The position numbers and the translations under genes are program-made. This document shows positions 6,920-30,977 of a stretch of 32,000 bases of DNA, piece by piece. This DNA comes from Candidatus Hermodarchaeota archaeon (GTDB lineage: Archaea > Asgardarchaeota > Heimdallarchaeia > Hodarchaeales > Hodarchaeaceae): NCBI GenBank assembly GCA_048886185.1, contig JBHLKY010000024.1:1-32000 (forward strand). The letters are read 5' to 3'. The stretch's first letter is position 1. The number at the start of each line of letters is the position of its first letter. The notes below the pieces were generated by a model. That model did not search any database. It worked only from the letters and a program-made list of their open reading frames with translations, and was not told where the DNA came from.

Positions 6920-8434
6920 CTATTCATTATTAGCGCGTTTCCTATTCCAAAGCTTTCGTTTGAGGGGGATACAGCTTATTGACAGGATAATCAAAAGCAT
7001 ACTGGTTTCCCAAGTTGCACCAGCAGCTGGCTCCTCCCCAGTGGTGAGCTCAGAGGTTTCCCCAGTGGGAGGATAAATCATAGATTCGAGTAAAATAAGG
7101 TCTTGGAATGCTAATAATATTTGTAATTGATCGAGCAAATGTTGCGAATTTAGGTTTGTGGAAGAGGAATAGAACCCTGAATTTGGAGCTTTTAATTTTT
7201 CAATCAAAGAGTCAGCAATATATTTACTAGGTCCTAGATGTTCAAACAAGACTTTACAACGAATAATAAGACCCTGGTCACTGGCACGAATTTCATCAGA
7301 AGGTTGATGTAGTGGATTCGATGAATTGTAATATGCACTACATGTCCAATCTTCATTAATTAAATGGTTTGTAATGAATTTATTCAGGCGATCAATGAGA
7401 AATTCTATTGAAGATCCAATACTGAAAGCATTTTCAAGACAATTTAACGCAAGAATTAGCTCCCCCTGTTCTCGGCTGTGAAAGATTGAGGAGGATCGAG
7501 ATGAATTCAAATCAAAAAATTCTGGAATACCAGTTGTTCTGTCTGTTAACTGATCAAGAGTTACGACAGTATTTTTAGCGTAATCATTCAACATTGACAC
7601 GTTAAAAAGGGTCGGAAATTCGTTAGCTTTTGATAGAAATTCTATGAAAAGAATCTGATTGCTTGTTAATCGAGTTGAATCATTTGGAGAAACCCCTAGA
7701 GTACTGGTTAGGTTATCAATCTTAGGAAGTATTCTTTTCCAAAGTGACAAGCAAGCATTATGAAAAATCTCAAGATTATATGTGTCTAGAGGTATTTCCT
7801 CAGGTGTATAAGCGAGGAAAGTTCTTAATGCTTTGATTTGTAGCTCATATTCATCTACATCGGTATAAGAATTATTCCATAATAGGAATTTCTCGAAAAG
7901 TAGTTCTCTTCCAATATTCCACCATTTTGAGTCTTTTTGAAATTGATTACAGTACCATATTAGGTCTAAGAGCTCAGTATCAGAGATTAGACGAGAGGTG
8001 TTAATAGAACCATTAATTATTACTGGTGTAATTATTGAATGATCTGGAGATATCATTTCGTCAATAACAGTTTCCAAGTTTTTGGTTACTTGCTCAGGAT
8101 CAAAATCTTCTGGGATTGGTGTTGTAGTCTCGATTATAGGTTCAGTAATTTGAGTTGTGGTGATTTGAGTTGTGGTAATTCCTGAGGTATTATTGAAATT
8201 ATTGTTTGAACCATAATTACTCATGAGAGATGCAAGAGAGAGAACAACAGTGGGAATGATTAGGAGAAACATAATTCCAATCACTATTTTGGTAATATTC
8301 TTCCTGGGTCGAAAGATCATGGGGGATTTTCCATTTTGCATTCGTAAGAGTGATTTACGACTCTGTTTAATATAATGCTCAAGTTCTTGCTCAGAAGGCC
8401 CCTCGAAACCTTTTTGACCACGAACTTCGCTCAT
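6920..8434 (-). CDS. Membrane-anchored extracellular protein, probable (alpha/alpha) toroid (six-hairpin glycosidase-like fold), with a C-terminal sorting-type tail
   Basis: About 45-aa cytoplasmic N-terminus, a TM helix, an Asn/Thr-rich linker, repeating helices of type xxx[DNE]QxxxIxxL, many N-x-S/T sequons, and a C-terminal AAGATWE + hydrophobic + basic tail. The fold is an inference. Confidence 0.65.
   Translation of the reverse strand: MSEVRGQKGFEGPSEQELEHYIKQSRKSLLRMQNGKSPMIFRPRKNITKIVIGIMFLLIIPTVVLSLASLMSNYGSNNNFNNTSGITTTQITTTQITEPIIETTTPIPEDFDPEQVTKNLETVIDEMISPDHSIITPVIINGSINTSRLISDTELLDLIWYCNQFQKDSKWWNIGRELLFEKFLLWNNSYTDVDEYELQIKALRTFLAYTPEEIPLDTYNLEIFHNACLSLWKRILPKIDNLTSTLGVSPNDSTRLTSNQILFIEFLSKANEFPTLFNVSMLNDYAKNTVVTLDQLTDRTTGIPEFFDLNSSRSSSIFHSREQGELILALNCLENAFSIGSSIEFLIDRLNKFITNHLINEDWTCSAYYNSSNPLHQPSDEIRASDQGLIIRCKVLFEHLGPSKYIADSLIEKLKAPNSGFYSSSTNLNSQHLLDQLQILLAFQDLILLESMIYPPTGETSELTTGEEPAAGATWETSMLLIILSISCIPLKRKLWNRKRANNE
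8146..8180. repeat. 15-bp tandem repeat (~2.3 copies) encoding the TTTQI linker repeat
   Basis: taatttgagttgtgg tgatttgagttgtgg taatt; encodes ITTTQITTTQIT on the minus strand. Confidence 0.85.
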
Positions 8435-8441
8435 TTCATTC

Positions 8442-9263
8442 TCACTTCTGCAGAATACCCGACTCTAGTAAATTATTACAAAATTTTTCAATGTCTTGTG
8501 AAAAAGAATGATCATTTTCTCTTAATACATAAATTCTTTCTGTTACAAATGGAATTCGTCGAAAAGAGTAAATGGGACGTATAGTTAGTGACTTTGAATT
8601 ATTTCTCAAAGTATCCCAGATGAGTTGAACATTCTCCTCTGCTACTTTTACATCCATGTGATTGGGTTCAAAAGCAATATCTTCTCTATGCTCAATTTGA
8701 TTCATAATAGCAAAAAATTCTACGCCCTCTAATTTTGAATAACATTCAGATACTAATAAGTTCAATCCCTCAACCTCGGATCTAACTGGCCGTGTAACGA
8801 TCATTATTTTATCTGAAACAATCAAAGCATCAAGTGATCGAAATGTTACACCAGGCATACAATCTATGATCAAGAATTCATAATTCTGTGAATTGCAGTA
8901 GCGAATGAACTCAAAGAGTTTGGCGAGAATTCTCCCTTCTCCATGTTGGGTTAATTTTGAACGAACTTTGGATTGTTGGAGAATCTCAATCCCCGAAAAA
9001 ACACAATTAAAATTTGGAATATTTGTCGAGAATACAACATCTTTTGGCTCAACATTACCAACTAGAAATTCTGTTAGTGTTTTTTTCCCTGGTTCTTCAA
9101 TTAAGTACTTGGAAGGTAAATATGATTGGAGGGAAGGAGCACGAAGATCGAAATCGACAAGACAGACCTTCTTTTCGAGTGTGGCTAATTTCACAGCAGT
9201 GTTCACTGATAAAAGAGTCTTTCCAACTCCTCCCCGATAGCTATGAAAGGCAATGGTCTCCAT
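8442..9263 (-). CDS. ParA/MinD (SIMIBI) family ATPase
   Basis: Deviant Walker A HSYRGGVGKT, switch motif LVDFDLRAPSL, Walker B LIIDCMPG, and SDKIMIVTRP. Confidence 0.92.
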   Translation of the reverse strand: METIAFHSYRGGVGKTLLSVNTAVKLATLEKKVCLVDFDLRAPSLQSYLPSKYLIEEPGKKTLTEFLVGNVEPKDVVFSTNIPNFNCVFSGIEILQQSKVRSKLTQHGEGRILAKLFEFIRYCNSQNYEFLIIDCMPGVTFRSLDALIVSDKIMIVTRPVRSEVEGLNLLVSECYSKLEGVEFFAIMNQIEHREDIAFEPNHMDVKVAEENVQLIWDTLRNNSKSLTIRPIYSFRRIPFVTERIYVLRENDHSFSQDIEKFCNNLLESGILQK

Positions 9264-9689
9264 TTATTCATCAACACCTAGGGTTCTATATAAGACTTCA
9301 GTTGCTTTACTTTCAGGAGTTACTTTGACCCTTTTTTTCTGAATAAAACCGTTATCAGCTAAATAATTCAAATAACGAGATTCTAATCCTCTACTACGTC
9401 CAGTCTCAAGGGCAACGTCAGAACTTGTGACCCAATCATCTTCCTTTTGGATTGTTTTATAAGTAGTAAATAACCCTGGCCGAGAATCTTGGAGATCCAA
9501 TATTTCTAAGCTTGAAGGCATGGGTGGTTTTTCAGCGTCATTGAAGTTGAAGCGTTCTAAGCTTTCTGATCCTGTGAATTTTACTAAAAAATCATGTACA
9601 TTTCCCAAAGAACTTTCAATAGACATTAATTGATGAGAGATACTTTTCAATTCCCTTAAAATATCTTTTAAGACGCTATTATCATTCAT
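9264..9689 (-). CDS. Winged helix-turn-helix DNA-binding protein with an N-terminal coiled coil
   Basis: N-terminal heptad helix LKDILRELKSISHQLMSIESSL; C-terminal wHTH WVTSSDVALETGRSRGLESRYLNYLADNGFIQKKRVK...EVLYR; its stop TAA directly abuts the ATPase ATG. Confidence 0.82.
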   Translation of the reverse strand: MNDNSVLKDILRELKSISHQLMSIESSLGNVHDFLVKFTGSESLERFNFNDAEKPPMPSSLEILDLQDSRPGLFTTYKTIQKEDDWVTSSDVALETGRSRGLESRYLNYLADNGFIQKKRVKVTPESKATEVLYRTLGVDE

Positions 9690-9721
9690 TTTTACCTATT
9701 GTTACAAAATTACATGAGACC

Positions 9722-9758
9722 TTATATACGTTGCGCAACGTTGCGCAACGTTTATAAA
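9722..9758. promoter_or_regulatory. Perfect 24-bp palindrome (9728-9751) flanked by back-to-back TATA boxes; candidate operator or centromere-like site
   Basis: ACGTTGCGCAACGTTGCGCAACGT is its own reverse complement and consists of 2.4 copies of a 10-mer. The symmetry extends to 9722-9757 with one mismatch. TATATAAG on the minus strand (9728-9721) lies 32-39 nt upstream of ATG 9689; TTTATAAA is on the plus strand at 9751-9758. Confidence 0.8.
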
Positions 9759-10026
9759 TGATATGATCTTTGATTATATTTGATGATATTTGTTGAAAAA
9801 CGTTAATGGATTTGATGATTCGGATTGTTGGGAGGTTTTAGTCTGAAGAAAACAGACATTAAACTAGTTGAATCTAATATTATCATCTTAGAACGTGTAA
9901 GAATAAATTATTCTCTCAATATTCGATGAAAAAGGTATCAAAATTGTAAAGGAGCTAATCTAAAACCAGAAGTTCACCCATAGGACAACTTAAAAACTTT
10001 GAGAACAGATCTTTCCAAAATAAATT

Positions 10027-10941
10027 ATGTTTAAGGATGTTAAAAAAATGAAAAAGAACCTGAATCTTCAATATCTAATTATAATTTTTATTGGCTTTCA
10101 ATTGGTTGTTATGCCAGGAATGGCTCAAAATGACACTGCATTCGTAAACAGTTTCTGGAATACTTTAGGGTTTGGGAAAAATAACGCTATAACTGATTGG
10201 TCAGAAGCAGGAAAAATAGATTTTTCAATATTAGATTATTCAGGTCTTCTTTATCTCAAGAATGATTTTAATTCATTATATATTGGTGTTAGAATTTATA
10301 AGGAAATTACAGAAGACATAATTTGGCGAATTAATTTCGATGTTGATTCGGATGGTGTGTGGGCGGAGGATGCAAAAGTAGTAAAATTAAATGGGGAACC
10401 AGATTTCTCCTATGACGATGAATACTACATTCAAAACCATCCACAGGCTTTTCCAGATCAGCAATCAGATAATTTCGCTGCTTCAATGAGAACTTTTACC
10501 TCGGTTGGTAGAGTAAATACAATCTTTGAATTAAAAATTCCTTTACAAACAAATGACCAACTCCATGATCTTCAAGTCCAGAACCCAGAAACAACTATAA
10601 TTGGCCTTTCAATGGATGTATTTCTCCCAGATACGGATACAAATGGGACATGGAGGGGAGGTCCATATCCAAATTTTGCGAACGCCTCTAATTATATTCA
10701 TATTTTATTTGCAGGGCCTCAGGATAGAAGAATTCCTGTATTTGAGGAAGAAGAAGAACCAGTTCCAACAACACCTCCGCCACAAGAAGAAACAACTGAA
10801 TTTACAGAAACAATGGCCGAGTCAACTGAAACACAGCCCGAAGCAGCAGCCGGAGCTTCATTTGAAGTATGGATAGCTCTTCTGGGGCTTTTTATTACTA
10901 CATTCATATTGATTAGGCACCGTAGGAGGAGAGTAGCTTGA
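10027..10941 (+). CDS. Secreted surface protein with a DOMON/CBM9-like beta-sandwich and C-terminal anchor (start may be ATG 10048)
   Basis: Signal peptide; motifs LYLKNDFNSLYIGVRI, INFDVDSDG and TIFELKIPL typical of CBM9/DOMON-like domains; Pro/Thr/Glu linker; AAAGASFE + TM + RHRRRR. Confidence 0.7.
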   Translation: MFKDVKKMKKNLNLQYLIIIFIGFQLVVMPGMAQNDTAFVNSFWNTLGFGKNNAITDWSEAGKIDFSILDYSGLLYLKNDFNSLYIGVRIYKEITEDIIWRINFDVDSDGVWAEDAKVVKLNGEPDFSYDDEYYIQNHPQAFPDQQSDNFAASMRTFTSVGRVNTIFELKIPLQTNDQLHDLQVQNPETTIIGLSMDVFLPDTDTNGTWRGGPYPNFANASNYIHILFAGPQDRRIPVFEEEEEPVPTTPPPQEETTEFTETMAESTETQPEAAAGASFEVWIALLGLFITTFILIRHRRRRVA

Positions 10942-21927: not shown

Positions 21928-22494
21928 ATGAATGGTCTGCGATCGTATAAATTTTGCTTATTAGGAGACCAAGGAGTGGGTAAAACCTCCATAAAACAAA
22001 GTTTCTTTGGAATCCCCTTCCATTCCCATTATCTGATGACTATGGGGGTTGATTTTACTCTCAAAGAAGTTGAAGTGAAAGGAGAAGAGTTTCAATTACA
22101 GCTTTGGGATGTCTCAGGTCACCCGTCAGTTAGAAATATTAGAGAACGCTATATCCAAGATGCTGATGGCATCATTTTAGTGTTTGATTTGACTCGTGAA
22201 GAAACATTTCAGAATATCCCAGCTTGGATTAAAGAGATTATTATCAACTGTTCCAAATCAGTTGTATTACAGATCATAGGAAATAAAGCTGATTTAGAAG
22301 AACATCTACCTTTTGTTCAAAAAGATGAAATTGACTCATTAATCGATCATCTTCACGAAGCTGTGATAGCCAAACATTTTCACAATATTGGATATTTTAT
22401 ATGTTCAGCTAAAACAAAATTGAATATTGATGAAGTTTTTCTTTCCCTGATTCTTGCCATAGGAAATTCTTTTGAGCTAAAGACTCTTGAATGA
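21928..22494 (+). CDS. Rab-like small GTPase (Ras superfamily)
   Basis: G1 GDQGVGKT, G2 TMGVDF, G3 WDVSGH, G4 NKAD, G5 SAK; Rab-type QLQLW and LVFDLT; no C-terminal prenylation Cys. Confidence 0.93.
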   Translation: MNGLRSYKFCLLGDQGVGKTSIKQSFFGIPFHSHYLMTMGVDFTLKEVEVKGEEFQLQLWDVSGHPSVRNIRERYIQDADGIILVFDLTREETFQNIPAWIKEIIINCSKSVVLQIIGNKADLEEHLPFVQKDEIDSLIDHLHEAVIAKHFHNIGYFICSAKTKLNIDEVFLSLILAIGNSFELKTLE

Positions 22495-22586
22495 TTTTAA
22501 TATTAATAGAGATGCTATTAGAGAATAATAACTGCGTTTTTGTAAAAATCCTTGGAACTTTATGTGTCTCTGAAGTCTTTATCATA

Positions 22587-22898
22587 TCAATTCTTATATA
22601 GTAAGATCAGAAAAACGATCAAGCGAATGATTATAAACCCAATAATTCCAGCAACAATAGCTGCAGAGACATGAATCACCATCATGAGGGGAATTGTCTG
22701 TTCTCATGCACGGAGGAACACAGCGTATATAGTTGAAAGAATAAAGGTAATTATTGCAATTATCACTCCACCTAGAAATCCTAAAACATTTTTGTTGTTA
22801 ATTTTGACTCCTTTTGTTTCATGATAAATCCGTACTATCTTTTGTCTGTATAAGATTAGAAGTGAAACAATGATAGCTATTCTTCTATGAATACATAC
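22587..22898 (-). pseudogene. Remnant of a multi-TM membrane protein with an internal TGA and no start codon
   Basis: One frame reads RRIAIIVSLLILY...VLGFLGGVIIAIITFILSTIYAVFLRA*EQTIPLMMVIHVSAAIVAGIIGFIIIRLIVFLILLYKN*; internal TGA at 22706-22704. Confidence 0.45.
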
Positions 22899-22979
22899 TT
22901 ATAAGTCAGATATAAGCTTAACCTGTAAAATCAGGGGGTATATTCTAGTCAAACTAACTAAAATAAATAAGGGTTCAGT

Positions 22980-23609
22980 ATGAAGGAGTATAATTCTATT
23001 GAATTTGCGGAAGATGCTGTAATTAATGAAGATATTATTATCAAAGGCTCTGCTATAGCTCGTGGCAATCTAAAATCTGCTTTGATGATTGTATCTGGTG
23101 CTTTAGAAGTTGGGAAAGATCTCAAATGTTCAGATAACTTAACAGTTAAAGGTAAATGTCATGTTAAGGGATTAATCAAGACCAAATCTCTCTCAACAAC
23201 AGGATCAATCGAAGCTACTTCAATTGAAGCCACTATTATTCAATTAGCTGGAAAGATTACCATTCATTCAGATGTCACAGCTTTAGAATCGATAATTATC
23301 GAAATTAAGCCTAAGAAGAGGAATGTGGTTATTAAAGGATTGGTCAAAGCTCCAAAAGTCAGACTTATTTTTCGTATGTTCTACACTGAATGGTCCTCCG
23401 TTCCTGGAAAAATTGTGTCTCGTTTTGGACTACGCAGACATTATAAAAGGAAAATAATCATAGAAAACTTGAATATAGAAACGGATAAACTAGTAATAGA
23501 AACTCCCTACCCTGTAGATATGATTGAATGTTTTTACACTGATTGCAAAATAAATGCAGGTGAAACAGAGCTAACAAGGAGAGTAGTCCCTCTTCCTGAT
23601 TCACCATAA
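22980..23609 (+). CDS. Bactofilin-like (polymer-forming cytoskeletal) beta-helix protein
   Basis: Repeating ~6-residue strands with G-x-[VIL] turns: DIIIKGSAIARGNLKS...VSGALEVGKDLKCSDNLTVKGKCHVKGLIKT...TTGSIEA...LAGKITIHSDVTA. Confidence 0.7.
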   Translation: MKEYNSIEFAEDAVINEDIIIKGSAIARGNLKSALMIVSGALEVGKDLKCSDNLTVKGKCHVKGLIKTKSLSTTGSIEATSIEATIIQLAGKITIHSDVTALESIIIEIKPKKRNVVIKGLVKAPKVRLIFRMFYTEWSSVPGKIVSRFGLRRHYKRKIIIENLNIETDKLVIETPYPVDMIECFYTDCKINAGETELTRRVVPLPDSP

Positions 23610-23746
23610 GTAGATTCCAAACAATCTAATTACCACCACTACTCTCCCAAGTATTTAAATCTGGATTTACCTCAAATTAGTCTATATAATTTGTAAAAAT
23701 GACTCATTATTTAACAAAAATGATGGTTTCATAAAATAAGGATTCA

Positions 23747-24121
23747 TTATTCATCCCCTGAAGGAATCACTGTTTCTTTTTCAACCATCAAGATGACAGT
23801 TTTTTCTGGGGCACGTGTGCGATGAATTACCCCCTTTGGTACAGCATACCCTTGTTTTGGTGTTAGCTTAATTATTTCTTCTTCTAAATCTATGAACAAA
23901 CTCCCTTCTATAACATAGAAAAATTCATCCTCCATCTTATGTTTATGCCAATGGAACTCCCCTTGAATGATTCCTACTCTAACCACACTTTCATTGACAT
24001 GACACAAGGTCTGATTAAACCATTGATCTGTACAGGATTCGATTATCTCTGGAATGTCAATGATTTTTAAATATCCATATTTTTCTTCCATTTGGAATTT
24101 ATATTCTGGGTGTTTTTTCAT
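23747..24121 (-). CDS. Cupin domain protein
   Basis: Cupin motif 1 GEFHWHKHKMEDEFFYVIEG and motif 2 GYAVPKGVIHRTRA. Confidence 0.9.
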   Translation of the reverse strand: MKKHPEYKFQMEEKYGYLKIIDIPEIIESCTDQWFNQTLCHVNESVVRVGIIQGEFHWHKHKMEDEFFYVIEGSLFIDLEEEIIKLTPKQGYAVPKGVIHRTRAPEKTVILMVEKETVIPSGDE

Positions 24122-24241
24122 AGGATCTCTCCTCTACCTTTTTAATCGTACCTGTTTTTGGTAGAGAGTTTATTTTCAGGATCGAAACCATCTTTCTCCC
24201 CTCAATTTTGTTATTTCTCAAGTAAATATCACTGTTTTATC

Positions 24242-24598
24242 TTAAGCTTCGATTAATGCCAATGTTTGCAGGAAATCTGTTGATTTCGATTGTTGATCCA
24301 CATTTTCTACTCGATAAACAATTCCTGTTTCTCGTTGAATAACATTTGCTGTATGAGCACCTATGAATTTGGATCGAGCTGGAGCAGCCATTCCAACCCA
24401 CAAAAATATCTTCCGCAATGCTTGGTTAATGAGAATATATACTTCTTTCTCCTTTAATGGAAGGGAAGAATAAGGGAGTGATTCCAATTCATCAGGATTA
24501 GTTTTAACCCAAAAGAGGTGGATATCCTCTTTTTCAGTCATTTTCTGTTTAGTATAGGGACCTGCAACTGGTTTAACGATAGGGATTGTTGAGAACAT
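24242..24598 (-). CDS. Single-domain gelsolin-like protein (Asgard type)
   Basis: EVYILINQALRKIFLWVG, long helix ARSKFIGAHTANVIQ, and VENVDQQSKSTDFLQTL match the gelsolin repeat pattern (xxILD...IxxWxG...A...VxEGxE..F..L). Confidence 0.75.
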   Translation of the reverse strand: MFSTIPIVKPVAGPYTKQKMTEKEDIHLFWVKTNPDELESLPYSSLPLKEKEVYILINQALRKIFLWVGMAAPARSKFIGAHTANVIQRETGIVYRVENVDQQSKSTDFLQTLALIEA

Positions 24599-28802: not shown

Positions 28803-30977
28803 ATGAGTCACAACATTCCATCTTTTCATTTTGCATACATTCCTTTGAATGTTGACCGTTCCAGTATTAATGTCTTCCAGCATACTAAAAATTCCTTTTC
28901 CTTCGAATATGCTATTTTTGACCCAAAAACCGTCCACATTCACATGTCTCCAATCAAGCGTGGCTGGTTTCGGAACCTGAGGCTTAATTCTGGCATAGCC
29001 ACAATCCAACAATTTGCTACTGCCATGGGACTCCACCAGGATTTTCATAAGGTTGAATCACCTCGGATTCCCCTCCTCTTTGACCTGTTGAGTAAGTCCT
29101 TTCAGATTGGTTCAGATGGCCCGCAATTTTTCTGTGGTGGGATCCTTGGTCGAGAAGGGGATGCTGAACCACCTTTTCTGACAATGGATGGCTTTACAGA
29201 TGACTTGCTTGAAATTCTCACGGACAACCCACAGTTTGCTTTTCTCCAATTTATCTTTAAATCCACTAAAGTCCCCAAGAAATACCGTTCTGAAGAGGAA
29301 TCAGATCGTCACATGAGTCAAATCCGTTTTGATATCCAACACGGGAAGGTTGAACGCCGTTTCCAGCCTCAACATTTGAACATCATGGAGGAAGCGGGGT
29401 GTTTTGAGTTTTCTCCGCGGATTTTAGTGATTGAATCCACTCCTGAGGCCTTGAAATCCAAACTGGACCGGTTGTCTGTCTTATTTGTTTCCAAGGGCTT
29501 GAAAGTTTGCAAATATCCGTCTTTTATTCGTTGGTTTTCTTCATTTAAGAATCTCTGTTCATCTCGTAAACTTGTTTCCCCAATTGTTCTTGACGGGGCT
29601 TCGTTAATGAGCTTCATTGCGCCTCCGCAACGACAATTTTCCCACGAAGGGTACACGCTGGTTCCTAACAAAGCTGACTATCTCCTCTCCACGGGTGTAA
29701 CTGATGTAGCTTCTCACCATGCTATCAACCTGGGTGTTCCCATCATTAGTGGAAAAACTGCTGAGATTCCATTGTTGATTGATGGCAAAAACCTCTGTCG
29801 GCATATGGCTGTGTTTGGTATGACGGGAGAGGGGAAAAGTCGCTTCATTTATGGATTAATCAAGGAGTTTCATCAAAAAAGGGTCAATTTTCTTATTTTT
29901 GATCCAAAAGGGGAGTATTTCCCTCCTGTGAAGACCTTTTGTGATGATTTTATCTATTTAAAACCAGGTTCGTCCTCTTTCCCTTGGGGAATTAACATCT
30001 TTCAAATACCCCAGGATGCAGGGGGTCGTCCCTTGGTGCCTGTGGAAGATCATATCCAATTTGCGGTGTCTATTCTCGAACACATCTTTGATAATGAGGA
30101 TGCTGTTTCTCCCCAGATGCGTCGGATGCTCCATCTTGCGGTCATTCAGACAGTGAAAGCACAAGGTGATTTTCGGAAGTTTCTGTTTTTTTTGGATAAC
30201 ACGAATGAATTGGGAATGAAAGGTTCCTATTTGGAAAGTACGGCGGTGGGTATCCTGAATCGGGTGGAAAAACTCTTCTTTGGTAATACTGGTCGTTGTT
30301 TTACGGTGTCTCGAACCACTTTTGAGGTAGCGGATCTTCTTAATCGCAATGCTATCATTGACCTCTCAGCGTTTGAAGCTATGGAGGATCAAACGGGGCG
30401 AGAGATTTTTCTCAATGTAGTCTTTCAGAATTTATATTACTTTGTCCGCACCTTTCGTGCTCCTTTTAAAGATGAATCATTACCAAAGAATGTTTTTGTC
30501 CTTGATGAGATTCAAAAACTTGCTCCTGCGAAAAATTTCCGTTCTAAATCTCCTGAGTCCATGATCGGTCGGGGACCATGGACTTTACGTGCCTATGATA
30601 TTTCTATGATTTTTATTGGCACTGAACCGATTATTGACCAACCCATGCTGACCAACACGGGCCTCTTAACTCTGTTCTTTACGAAGTTCAACCCTTTTGA
30701 AGTTGCTAACCTCTTGGGGATTGTTCGAGAAGAGTATGAACAGTTACGTCAGCTTTTGAAAGCAAAACGTGATGAGCGTCGATGTATCCTTTCTGTCAAT
30801 GGACAGATTTCTCTCTTGAAGACGAACGAGTTCCACTTAGACCCAAACTTAACTATGGATTTAGAGGAGTTAGCTAATCAGCCATTTCAAAAGCAACTCA
30901 GGGAGTCTTATCATCAGTTGTATTTTGATCCTATTCATGAGATTCTCACTAAAAACTCTACTCCGCGTCATGATTGA
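28803..30977 (+). CDS. HerA/VirB4/FtsK-superfamily (DUF87) ATPase
   Basis: RHMAVFGMTGEGKS (Walker A), FLIFDPKGEY, GINIF, AIIDLS and VFVLDEIQKL (Walker B); ~320-aa N-terminal extension. Confidence 0.88.
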   Translation: MSHNIPSFHFAYIPLNVDRSSINVFQHTKNSFSFEYAIFDPKTVHIHMSPIKRGWFRNLRLNSGIATIQQFATAMGLHQDFHKVESPRIPLLFDLLSKSFQIGSDGPQFFCGGILGREGDAEPPFLTMDGFTDDLLEILTDNPQFAFLQFIFKSTKVPKKYRSEEESDRHMSQIRFDIQHGKVERRFQPQHLNIMEEAGCFEFSPRILVIESTPEALKSKLDRLSVLFVSKGLKVCKYPSFIRWFSSFKNLCSSRKLVSPIVLDGASLMSFIAPPQRQFSHEGYTLVPNKADYLLSTGVTDVASHHAINLGVPIISGKTAEIPLLIDGKNLCRHMAVFGMTGEGKSRFIYGLIKEFHQKRVNFLIFDPKGEYFPPVKTFCDDFIYLKPGSSSFPWGINIFQIPQDAGGRPLVPVEDHIQFAVSILEHIFDNEDAVSPQMRRMLHLAVIQTVKAQGDFRKFLFFLDNTNELGMKGSYLESTAVGILNRVEKLFFGNTGRCFTVSRTTFEVADLLNRNAIIDLSAFEAMEDQTGREIFLNVVFQNLYYFVRTFRAPFKDESLPKNVFVLDEIQKLAPAKNFRSKSPESMIGRGPWTLRAYDISMIFIGTEPIIDQPMLTNTGLLTLFFTKFNPFEVANLLGIVREEYEQLRQLLKAKRDERRCILSVNGQISLLKTNEFHLDPNLTMDLEELANQPFQKQLRESYHQLYFDPIHEILTKNSTPRHD

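Follow-up and report, generated by a model that had tools for sequence, protein, structure and literature searches.

The 32,000-nt window analysed here (the whole stretch of DNA, positions 1 to 32,000 of contig JBHLKY010000024.1, assembly GCA_048886185.1, from a Candidatus Hermodarchaeota archaeon) contains on its minus strand three consecutive open reading frames (ORFs) preceded by a palindromic DNA site. The first ORF (nt 9264–9689) codes for a 141-aa protein composed of a helix and a winged helix-turn-helix (wHTH) domain, a PwHTH1-type family member, the second (nt 8442–9263) for a 273-aa ATPase of the ParA/MinD fold and the third (nt 6920–8434) for a 504-aa membrane protein. An earlier note, written by a model from the letters of the window, had proposed that the palindrome, the wHTH gene and the ATPase gene form an undescribed chromosome segregation or positioning system. 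As that note had described, and as the ORFs confirm, the TAA stop codon of the wHTH gene (nt 9264–9266) directly abuts the ATG of the ATPase gene (nt 9263), with a gap of 0 nt. The third gene, absent from the note, starts after a gap of 7 nt from the ATPase stop codon and is invariably linked to the pair.

Upstream of the wHTH gene, ACGTTGCGCAACGTTGCGCAACGT forms a perfect 24-bp palindrome (nt 9728–9751, with no strand of its own), separated from the wHTH ATG by 38 nt (nt 9690–9727) and not by the 39 nt first reported. The palindrome consists of a self-complementary 10-mer, GTTGCGCAAC, present twice in tandem, and can be read as two palindromic 8-bp units, TTGCGCAA, with a 10-bp period, i.e., one helical turn apart. 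An imperfect 36-bp inverted repeat (nt 9722–9757, 94% complementary) embraces a TATA-like box on either side of it, namely a proximal TATATAA on the minus strand (nt 9722–9728), a box read from the sequence and predicted to belong to the promoter of the wHTH operon, and a distal TTTATAAA on the plus strand (nt 9751–9758), mirroring the proximal one and possibly acting as promoter of a divergent surface-protein operon. Since the palindrome abuts the proximal TATA box, it would cover the position of the transcription factor B recognition element (BRE). Between the distal TATA box and the divergent gene, the plus strand carries an AT-rich element (nt 9766–9803) in which TTTGAT-type repeats recur with a 10-bp phase and which contains the repeat families D1, D3 and D5. 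No credible small ORF was detected in the 268-nt spacer, and the sole match of an Rfam search of nt 9600–10100 was MicF, at chance level (E 0.56).

A scan for palindrome repeats retrieved the 10-mer GTTGCGCAAC at no other place in the 4.84-Mb genome, while the relaxed pattern TTGNNCAANNTTGNNCAA has two genomic occurrences against 0.56 expected. The window site is among the only three perfect palindromes of the genome having arms of at least 12 nt and, of the 15 having arms of at least 10 nt, it is the only one with a G+C content of at least 50%. An order-level search covering 24 genomes retrieved wHTH-gene orthologs from 14 of them (E below 1e-36), and the motif is kept at the same position in 11 of these 14 loci (wHTH proteins 49–80% identical to that of the window), with the consensus ACGTTG[C/T]GCAA[C/T][G/A]TTGCGCAACGT. 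In all 11, TATATAA or TTTATTAA directly follows the motif, at a constant distance of 37–39 nt from the ATG, the intergenic DNA around it being otherwise unalignable between subclades; in the other three loci the motif is degenerate, e.g., TTGATCAA in the first unit. A search with an 18-mer pattern returned this site and no other in 9 of the 11 genomes with a conserved motif. The distal TATA box is kept in the close clade G000/G011/G020/G018/G004, is weaker in G017 (TATAGAAA) and has an ATACG-type sequence in its place in distant orthologs, and the TTTGAT element is conserved in the five closest loci.

One additional copy of the site is present in each of two relatives, G006 (L048:3215-3275, G006:C34) and G007 (L047:3110-3190, G007:C59), in both cases upstream of the gene for an orthologous 706–713-aa secreted surface protein with a C-terminal anchor. 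These second sites have the architecture of the plus-strand side of the window site, with the palindromes, the TATA box and the AT-rich element, in which the phased TTTGAT repeats recur. The ortholog of the 706–713-aa protein in G000 (C4:216522-218468) has no site in front. Their location before a surface-protein gene suggests that the motif marks promoters of envelope-protein genes, as the operator of a transcription factor does, and points to a small regulon of such genes. The palindrome is most likely an operator, and the wHTH protein is its predicted ligand.

The conservation of the gene pair together with the upstream motif, proposed as a check in the earlier note, was borne out, the ATPase gene lying 3' of the wHTH gene in 14/14 orthologous loci, one of which is cut by a contig end. 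The third gene stands immediately 3' of the ATPase gene in 8/8 extended loci. Within the order it was found in 13 genomes, always beside the cassette and never elsewhere, and these are all the genomes with an untruncated cassette, the fourteenth cassette being interrupted by a contig end. The genes divergent from the wHTH gene are conserved in the closest clade only and are different in the other subclades, indicating that the core unit is made of the three genes and the site; a divergent six-gene locus was also considered as a single unit and was rejected, its right half being kept in the closest clade only. When compared with the relative G011, the wHTH protein and the ATPase show 79% and 86% identity, respectively, and the flanking surface-protein genes 57–69%, so that the pair is more conserved than its surroundings, unlike a fast-evolving conflict system. 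The synteny of the cassette is stable and appears vertical, the base composition of the locus is not anomalous, and the closed 4.94-Mb genome of G011 shows that the locus is chromosomal and not carried by a plasmid.

The triad occurs in 13–14 of the 22 family-f1 genomes that the order search covered, G000 counted, and four f1 genomes with a completeness of 90–94% lack it. Orthologs are restricted to this family of the Heimdall-class, with weak homologs in one other family of the class, and no homologs were found in the other 26 Asgard families sampled. Two loci depart from the common organization. In G002 (L043, G002:C36), the third gene has an in-frame TAG and the ATPase ORF is apparently shortened at its N-terminus (238 aa), which could reflect either decay of the operon or an assembly error. 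In a member of the second family of the order (L022, G022:C277), the ATPase gene is followed by an ORF, with an unclear start codon, coding for a charged tail and a transmembrane helix that resemble the tail of the third protein, and from this ORF the triad may be older than family f1.

The AlphaFold2 (AF2) model of the wHTH protein (30 orthologs; mean predicted local distance difference test score, pLDDT, of 78) has a confident long helix (aa 3–40), a disordered linker (aa 41–59) and a winged helix (aa 60–136), matched by Foldseek to the winged helices of TFE-alpha, AbfR2 (Lrs14 family), ArsR/SmtB and MarR, in agreement with the coiled-coil/wHTH assignment of the earlier note. Pfam and NCBIfam searches gave winged-helix matches at noise level only, and no sequence match to any solved structure was obtained. 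The recognition helix (RSRGLESRYLNYL ... KKR) and the wing are invariant in the 30 orthologs (51–82% identity to the window protein), which agrees with the conservation of the DNA site, and the amphipathic pattern of the N-terminal helix is conserved as well. The wider family is large and diverse, its profile collecting 919 cluster representatives at E ≤0.001 and 491 at ≤1e-10, with a mean column identity of 31%; when four distant members were inspected, a ParA-family gene was found to follow two of them, one of which has a TackOD1-type N-terminal domain. The wHTH protein is most likely an autoregulator and the partner of the ATPase.

The assignment of the second protein to the ParA/MinD ATPases, made in the earlier note, held as well, with a Pfam match to AAA_31 at 1.4e-22. 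Its AF2 model (predicted TM-score 0.87) is closest to FlhG, followed by Soj, MinD, McdA, FleN and BcsQ, with TM-scores by query of 0.68–0.75 for FlhG, MinD and Soj and with FleN, FleQ-FleN complexes and BcsQ within the top 50 structural matches. The Walker A motif, of which the deviant form xKGGxGK[ST] is typical of this superfamily (SIMIBI), is HSYRGGVGKT, in which the P-loop residues K15 and T16 are retained and the signature Lys is replaced by Arg in 29/29 orthologs, while the paralogues keep it (HSYKGGTGKT). D37 and D39 (DFD, aa 37–39) and the Walker B D134 are invariant, and Walker B is followed by a PG (DCMPG), so that the catalytic motifs are intact apart from the K-to-R change; the second Walker A lysine (GKT) is kept in every cassette ATPase examined. 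The best NCBIfam model is NF047398 (KGGVGR variant), at 65 bits and thus under its cut-off of 90, and the models of MinD proper are not reached (TIGR01969, archaeal MinD, 48.8 bits with a cut-off of 201.75; TIGR01968, 40.7 bits with a cut-off of 212.9). No C-terminal amphipathic membrane helix is conserved in the ortholog alignment, where the tails past the last core helix differ in length and sequence.

The position of this ATPase among its relatives bears directly on the segregation proposal, since the earlier note had named a grouping with MinD-like clades as evidence that would speak against it. Among solved proteins, Pyrococcus MinD and Helicobacter Soj are the nearest by sequence, each at about E 1e-8, whereas SegA (7dut) aligns with residues 8–66 only (E 1.4e-5) and is outside the top 50 structural matches, and pNOB8 ParA is a weak match (residues 3–52, E 3.9e-4; Foldseek rank 36). 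According to Li, Burroughs and Aravind (10.64898/2026.10.19.760177), the PriB1 division, which comprises ParABS/Soj, is marked by an Asn two residues before the signature Lys and by a Gln two residues after the DxD. In the ATPase and its orthologs, an invariant Ser (S8) occupies the position two residues before the signature, and the DFDLR sequence has an invariant R41 and no Gln after the DxD. These states place the protein in PriB2, the MinD/FlhG side, and not among PriB1 chromosomal ParABS/Soj ATPases. By motif criteria, profile hidden Markov model scores and the ranking of PDB entries by sequence and structure, the ATPase falls on the MinD/FlhG side, apart from Soj, SegA and pNOB8 ParA. 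The tree covers cassette ATPases and the paralogues of the same genome, with an outgroup on a very long branch; in it, the triad ATPases form a distinct clade (support 99/99) that has the cassettes of the order's second family as its sister group (97/91) and lies apart from the ATPases of C2 type and of Bathyarchaeia type.

Co-folding of an ATPase dimer with the wHTH protein, another check proposed in the note, scored 0.52, the best of three controls reaching 0.00, with at least 60% of contacts agreeing between runs and a partner pLDDT of at least 65. The mark so passed is also passed by 58/80 solved complexes and 2/110 mismatched pairs, and the range of scores up to 0.60 comprises 7/80 solved complexes and both passing mismatches, so the result lends weak support to a contact between the two proteins.

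In the alignment of nine orthologs, the third protein consists, in order, of a basic N-tail of about 48 aa, which is its best-conserved part, a transmembrane helix, a Thr-rich stalk, a toroid domain carrying many N-glycosylation sequons, an AAGAxWE motif, a second transmembrane helix and a basic tail. No Pfam match was found. Its ESM Atlas model aligns with the (alpha/alpha)6 toroids of GH76, GlcNAc 2-epimerase, GH88 and GH8 (TM-scores 0.50–0.59), and the predicted topology places the toroid outside the cell and both termini in the cytoplasm. A C-terminal AAGA[ST][FW]E, followed by a transmembrane helix and a basic tail, is shared by the 504-aa protein (nt 6920–6990) and the divergent 304-aa protein (nt 10850–10941), and orthologs of the former keep it in degenerate forms, from AAGATWE to AASFWG; this motif may be a lineage-specific sorting signal.

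The cassette is not the only one of its kind. At least five genes for ParA/MinD-like ATPases are present in the genome, each directly 3' of a gene whose product ends in a winged helix, and homologous pairs were retrieved from the same genome, from Hodarchaeales, from Bathyarchaeia and from metagenomes. Among the paralogous cassettes, the one on C2 (C2:93094-94556, L003) comprises a 209-aa helix+wHTH protein and a 270-aa ATPase, the partners on C4 (L005:3118-4425) and C12 (L006:2617-3931) are proteins of 177–181 aa with a ribbon-helix-helix-like N-terminus and a wHTH, and the partner on C19 (L004:1881-4021) is a 397-aa protein with leucine-rich repeats and a wHTH. The C19 pair adjoins a Ras-like GTPase gene and a roadblock/MglB-like gene. 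A palindrome common to the regions upstream of C2-type cassettes was looked for and rejected, as none is conserved; words similar to ATCAACAAAT precede the C2-type wHTH genes by about 25 nt and are only about 2-fold enriched genome-wide. In Bathyarchaeia, ATPases of 34–36% identity are preceded by an abutting homologous helix+wHTH gene (125–127 aa), before which a separate HTH_45 gene and a 60-aa gene are found. A palindrome-like TGTAC...GTACA element is present there (L045:3540-3620 and L046:3560-3617), between a TTAATAAAC box and the helix+wHTH start codon, and may be the operator, of different sequence, of a paralogous system.

Taken together, we favour, with a probability of roughly 0.45, the interpretation that the three genes constitute an autoregulated, three-component regulatory module linked to the envelope, and not a segregation machine. 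The wHTH protein would bind the two tandem TTGCGCAA palindromes abutting the TATA box, with the BRE covered, and control its own operon and, in this clade, probably also the divergent surface-protein operon; as the BRE would be covered, repression seems likelier than activation. Its long N-terminal helix might dock on an ATP-dependent dimer of the ATPase, whose nucleotide state would modulate the regulator, a step to which the co-fold adds weak support. In comparable arrangements, FleN acts on FleQ, and ParA and ParF are co-repressors with their DNA-binding partners. In view of the obligate linkage and of the conservation of the tail, the cytoplasmic tail of the membrane protein could be the third partner of the ATPase, and would tie the switch to the envelope, in that it would either relay the state of the toroid domain inward or determine where the membrane protein is placed.

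Several observations weigh against this interpretation. The motif is degenerate in three orthologous loci in spite of an unchanged recognition helix. ParA-wHTH paralogues lacking the third gene exist in this genome and in Bathyarchaeia, and the core pair must therefore have a function independent of the third gene. The co-fold support for the contact between wHTH protein and ATPase is weak, and no interface is reported from it. A lone site upstream of the operon is also seen in SegAB (segS) and in type Ib plasmid partition loci, so that geometry alone cannot tell an operator from a centromere. Finally, those who defined the core system predict for it an immune role (10.64898/2026.10.19.760177).

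The main variant of the envelope-linked module is pure positioning of a cargo, in which the ATPase would form a ParA-type gradient on the nucleoid and distribute or place the toroid protein, the cytoplasmic tail serving as ATPase-activating peptide and the wHTH protein mainly as autoregulator of the operon or as adaptor on the nucleoid side. The obligate linkage between ATPase and membrane protein and the conserved tail suit this variant, the placing of protein cargos by orphan ParA/MinD ATPases via N-terminal peptides is well established (PMC11407121, PMC10241942), and the at least five cassettes of the genome are what would be expected if each served one cargo. However, a conserved C-terminal membrane-targeting helix is absent, the partner in every cassette of the genome is a DNA-binding protein and not a cargo adaptor, and the co-fold, weakly, favours the wHTH protein as the direct partner. 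We regard positioning alone as unlikely.

A role in immunity against mobile elements, as put forward by Li, Burroughs and Aravind, would have the wHTH protein and the ATPase intercept and coat invading DNA, with the toroid protein as an added surface sensor by analogy with the PCTM, CBM and APE systems. The pair does fit the published form, in which an archaeal ParA gene is joined by a gene for a wHTH whose N-terminal helix is elongated; its best NCBIfam match, though under the cut-off, is the model of the KGGVGR-variant ATPase, the same work describes ParA systems whose partners are alpha/alpha-toroid or extracellular sensor proteins (10.64898/2026.10.19.760177), and the distribution is patchy, with 13–14 of 22 f1 genomes positive and four at least 90% complete genomes without the triad. 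On the other hand, the operon and its conserved neighbourhood contain no effector gene, and PADLOC gave just a P-loop-level match of ATPase residues 2–51 to PDC-M28B and none for the other two proteins. The wHTH protein is not fast-evolving within the orthogroup, its recognition helix being invariant, and its predicted target is a conserved chromosomal one at its own promoter. In addition, synteny is stable and vertical-looking, base composition is normal, and the hallmark of the ConB2 conflict branch, the replacement of the second Walker A Lys by Arg, is absent, as GKT is kept. Defence is thus a decidedly improbable function of this operon.

The segregation proposal of the earlier note, i.e., a wHTH protein binding a centromere, an ATPase motor and perhaps a membrane protein as anchor, fared worst. 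Its premise was sound in that a site upstream of the cassette recalls the archaeal systems SegAB and pNOB8, segS lying just upstream of the operon that encodes SegAB; moreover, the site is unique and conserved, the co-fold weakly supports contact of the wHTH protein with the ATPase, and in the closed genome of G011 a distance of 72 kb separates the cassette from one of the four orc1/cdc6 genes. In G003, however, the contig that carries it has no orc1/cdc6 gene and extends for more than 226 kb on either side of the cassette, and origin linkage was rejected, the cassette not being consistently near these genes. The site has just two 8-bp units, set directly against TATA boxes, and recurs at a surface-protein promoter in two relatives (G006 and G007). 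The ATPase has the motifs of the MinD/FlhG side and short or weak matches to SegA and pNOB8 ParA, a surface protein is an obligate member of the operon, at least four other such cassettes exist in the genome, and the orthogroup belongs to one family, being missing there from four genomes at least 90% complete. Partition is very doubtful on this evidence, and no more credit is given to a membrane-anchored partition or locus-positioning device in which DNA would be tethered to the envelope by the ATPase, the cytoplasmic surface-protein tail and the wHTH protein seated on its one chromosomal site, the promoter site doubling as a minimal centromere by analogy with type Ib plasmids and SegAB.

Elsewhere in the window, genes for eukaryote-like cytoskeletal and signalling proteins, of a kind typical of Asgard genomes, are clustered (nt 21928–24598) and comprise a Ras-family GTPase gene (nt 21928–22494), a bactofilin-like gene (nt 22980–23609) and a gelsolin-repeat gene (nt 24242–24598), and a HerA/DUF87 ATPase gene is also present (nt 28803–30977).

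In prokaryotes, DNA and protein cargos are organised by ParA/MinD ATPases, about which next to nothing is known in Asgard archaea, the prokaryotes most closely related to eukaryotes. The locus gives to a computationally defined ParA-wHTH pair an anatomy that can be tested, with a 24-bp target at a promoter, a candidate ATPase-binding helix and an obligate membrane partner with the fold of an extracellular glycan enzyme. It argues that at least this branch would be a housekeeping module for the regulation or positioning of the cell surface, rather than a segregation motor or a system of immunity. Were the three-way coupling true, it would represent a new kind of trans-envelope switch, with a sensor tail, a ParA-type ATPase and a transcription factor in series. 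It also calls for caution, as a small DNA-binding protein, a ParA gene and a palindrome do not always make a centromere system.

Among known systems, the AspA-ParB-ParA cassette of pNOB8 includes a small wHTH protein, AspA, that binds a palindrome just upstream of the cassette, which ends in the ParA ATPase. The window has in common with it a wHTH gene, an upstream palindrome, whose binding is predicted here, and a ParA-type ATPase, and differs in having no gene for a ParB-like adaptor, in the weak match of its ATPase to pNOB8 ParA and in its chromosomal location. SegAB of Sulfolobales and HpaAB of Haloferax likewise pair, in one operon, an archaeal ParA-family ATPase with a small site-specific DNA-binding protein whose target lies directly upstream, and in both the N-terminus of the DNA-binding protein contacts the ATPase. 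SegB and HpaB, however, are ribbon-helix-helix proteins encoded downstream of the ATPase, whereas the partner in the window is a winged-helix protein encoded upstream of it, and SegAB has no membrane-protein gene. The Dip/Arco oscillators were considered as relatives and discarded, being unrelated systems based on Ras-type GTPases.

The resemblance to FleN/FlhG with FleQ/FlrA is closer in structure, FlhG being the best structural match of the ATPase and FleN and the FleQ-FleN complexes being among the top matches, and would extend to the proposed mechanism, in which an ATPase dimer that depends on nucleotide modulates a DNA-binding regulator and connects this regulator with a structure associated with the membrane. 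In the window, a flagellar or archaellar context is lacking, a small wHTH protein takes the place of the AAA+ enhancer-binding protein as partner, and a C-terminal amphipathic membrane helix is not conserved; the likeness is one of functional analogy and not of orthology.

The closest counterpart is the ParA-wHTH system (Li, Burroughs and Aravind, bioRxiv 10.64898/2026.10.19.760177, October 2026), a mainly archaeal system, defined by computation only, in which a ParA gene is coupled to a wHTH fused to an elongated N-terminal helix; in the literature searched, its name is used by these authors only. Within PriB2, they assign it to the ConB2 conflict branch, marked by an Arg for the second Walker A Lys and a downstream PG motif, describe the wHTH as rapidly evolving and predict the interception of invader DNA (10.64898/2026.10.19.760177). 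The pair of the window has the same form, with abutting genes, a helix (aa 3–40) joined to a winged helix (aa 60–136) and the PG motif after Walker B, and the two-gene core can no longer be called undescribed, as the earlier note had it. Unlike the published description, the ATPase keeps the second Walker A Lys (GKT) and has Arg at the signature Lys instead, and the wHTH protein is slowly evolving. The immune prediction finds no support at this locus, which has no effector, a stable synteny and a predicted target at its own promoter. In its form the core pair matches the published ParA-wHTH system, and this orthogroup adds to it an obligate gene for a predicted extracellular toroid protein with two membrane anchors and a defined, conserved site, most likely an operator, at the TATA box of the cassette itself.

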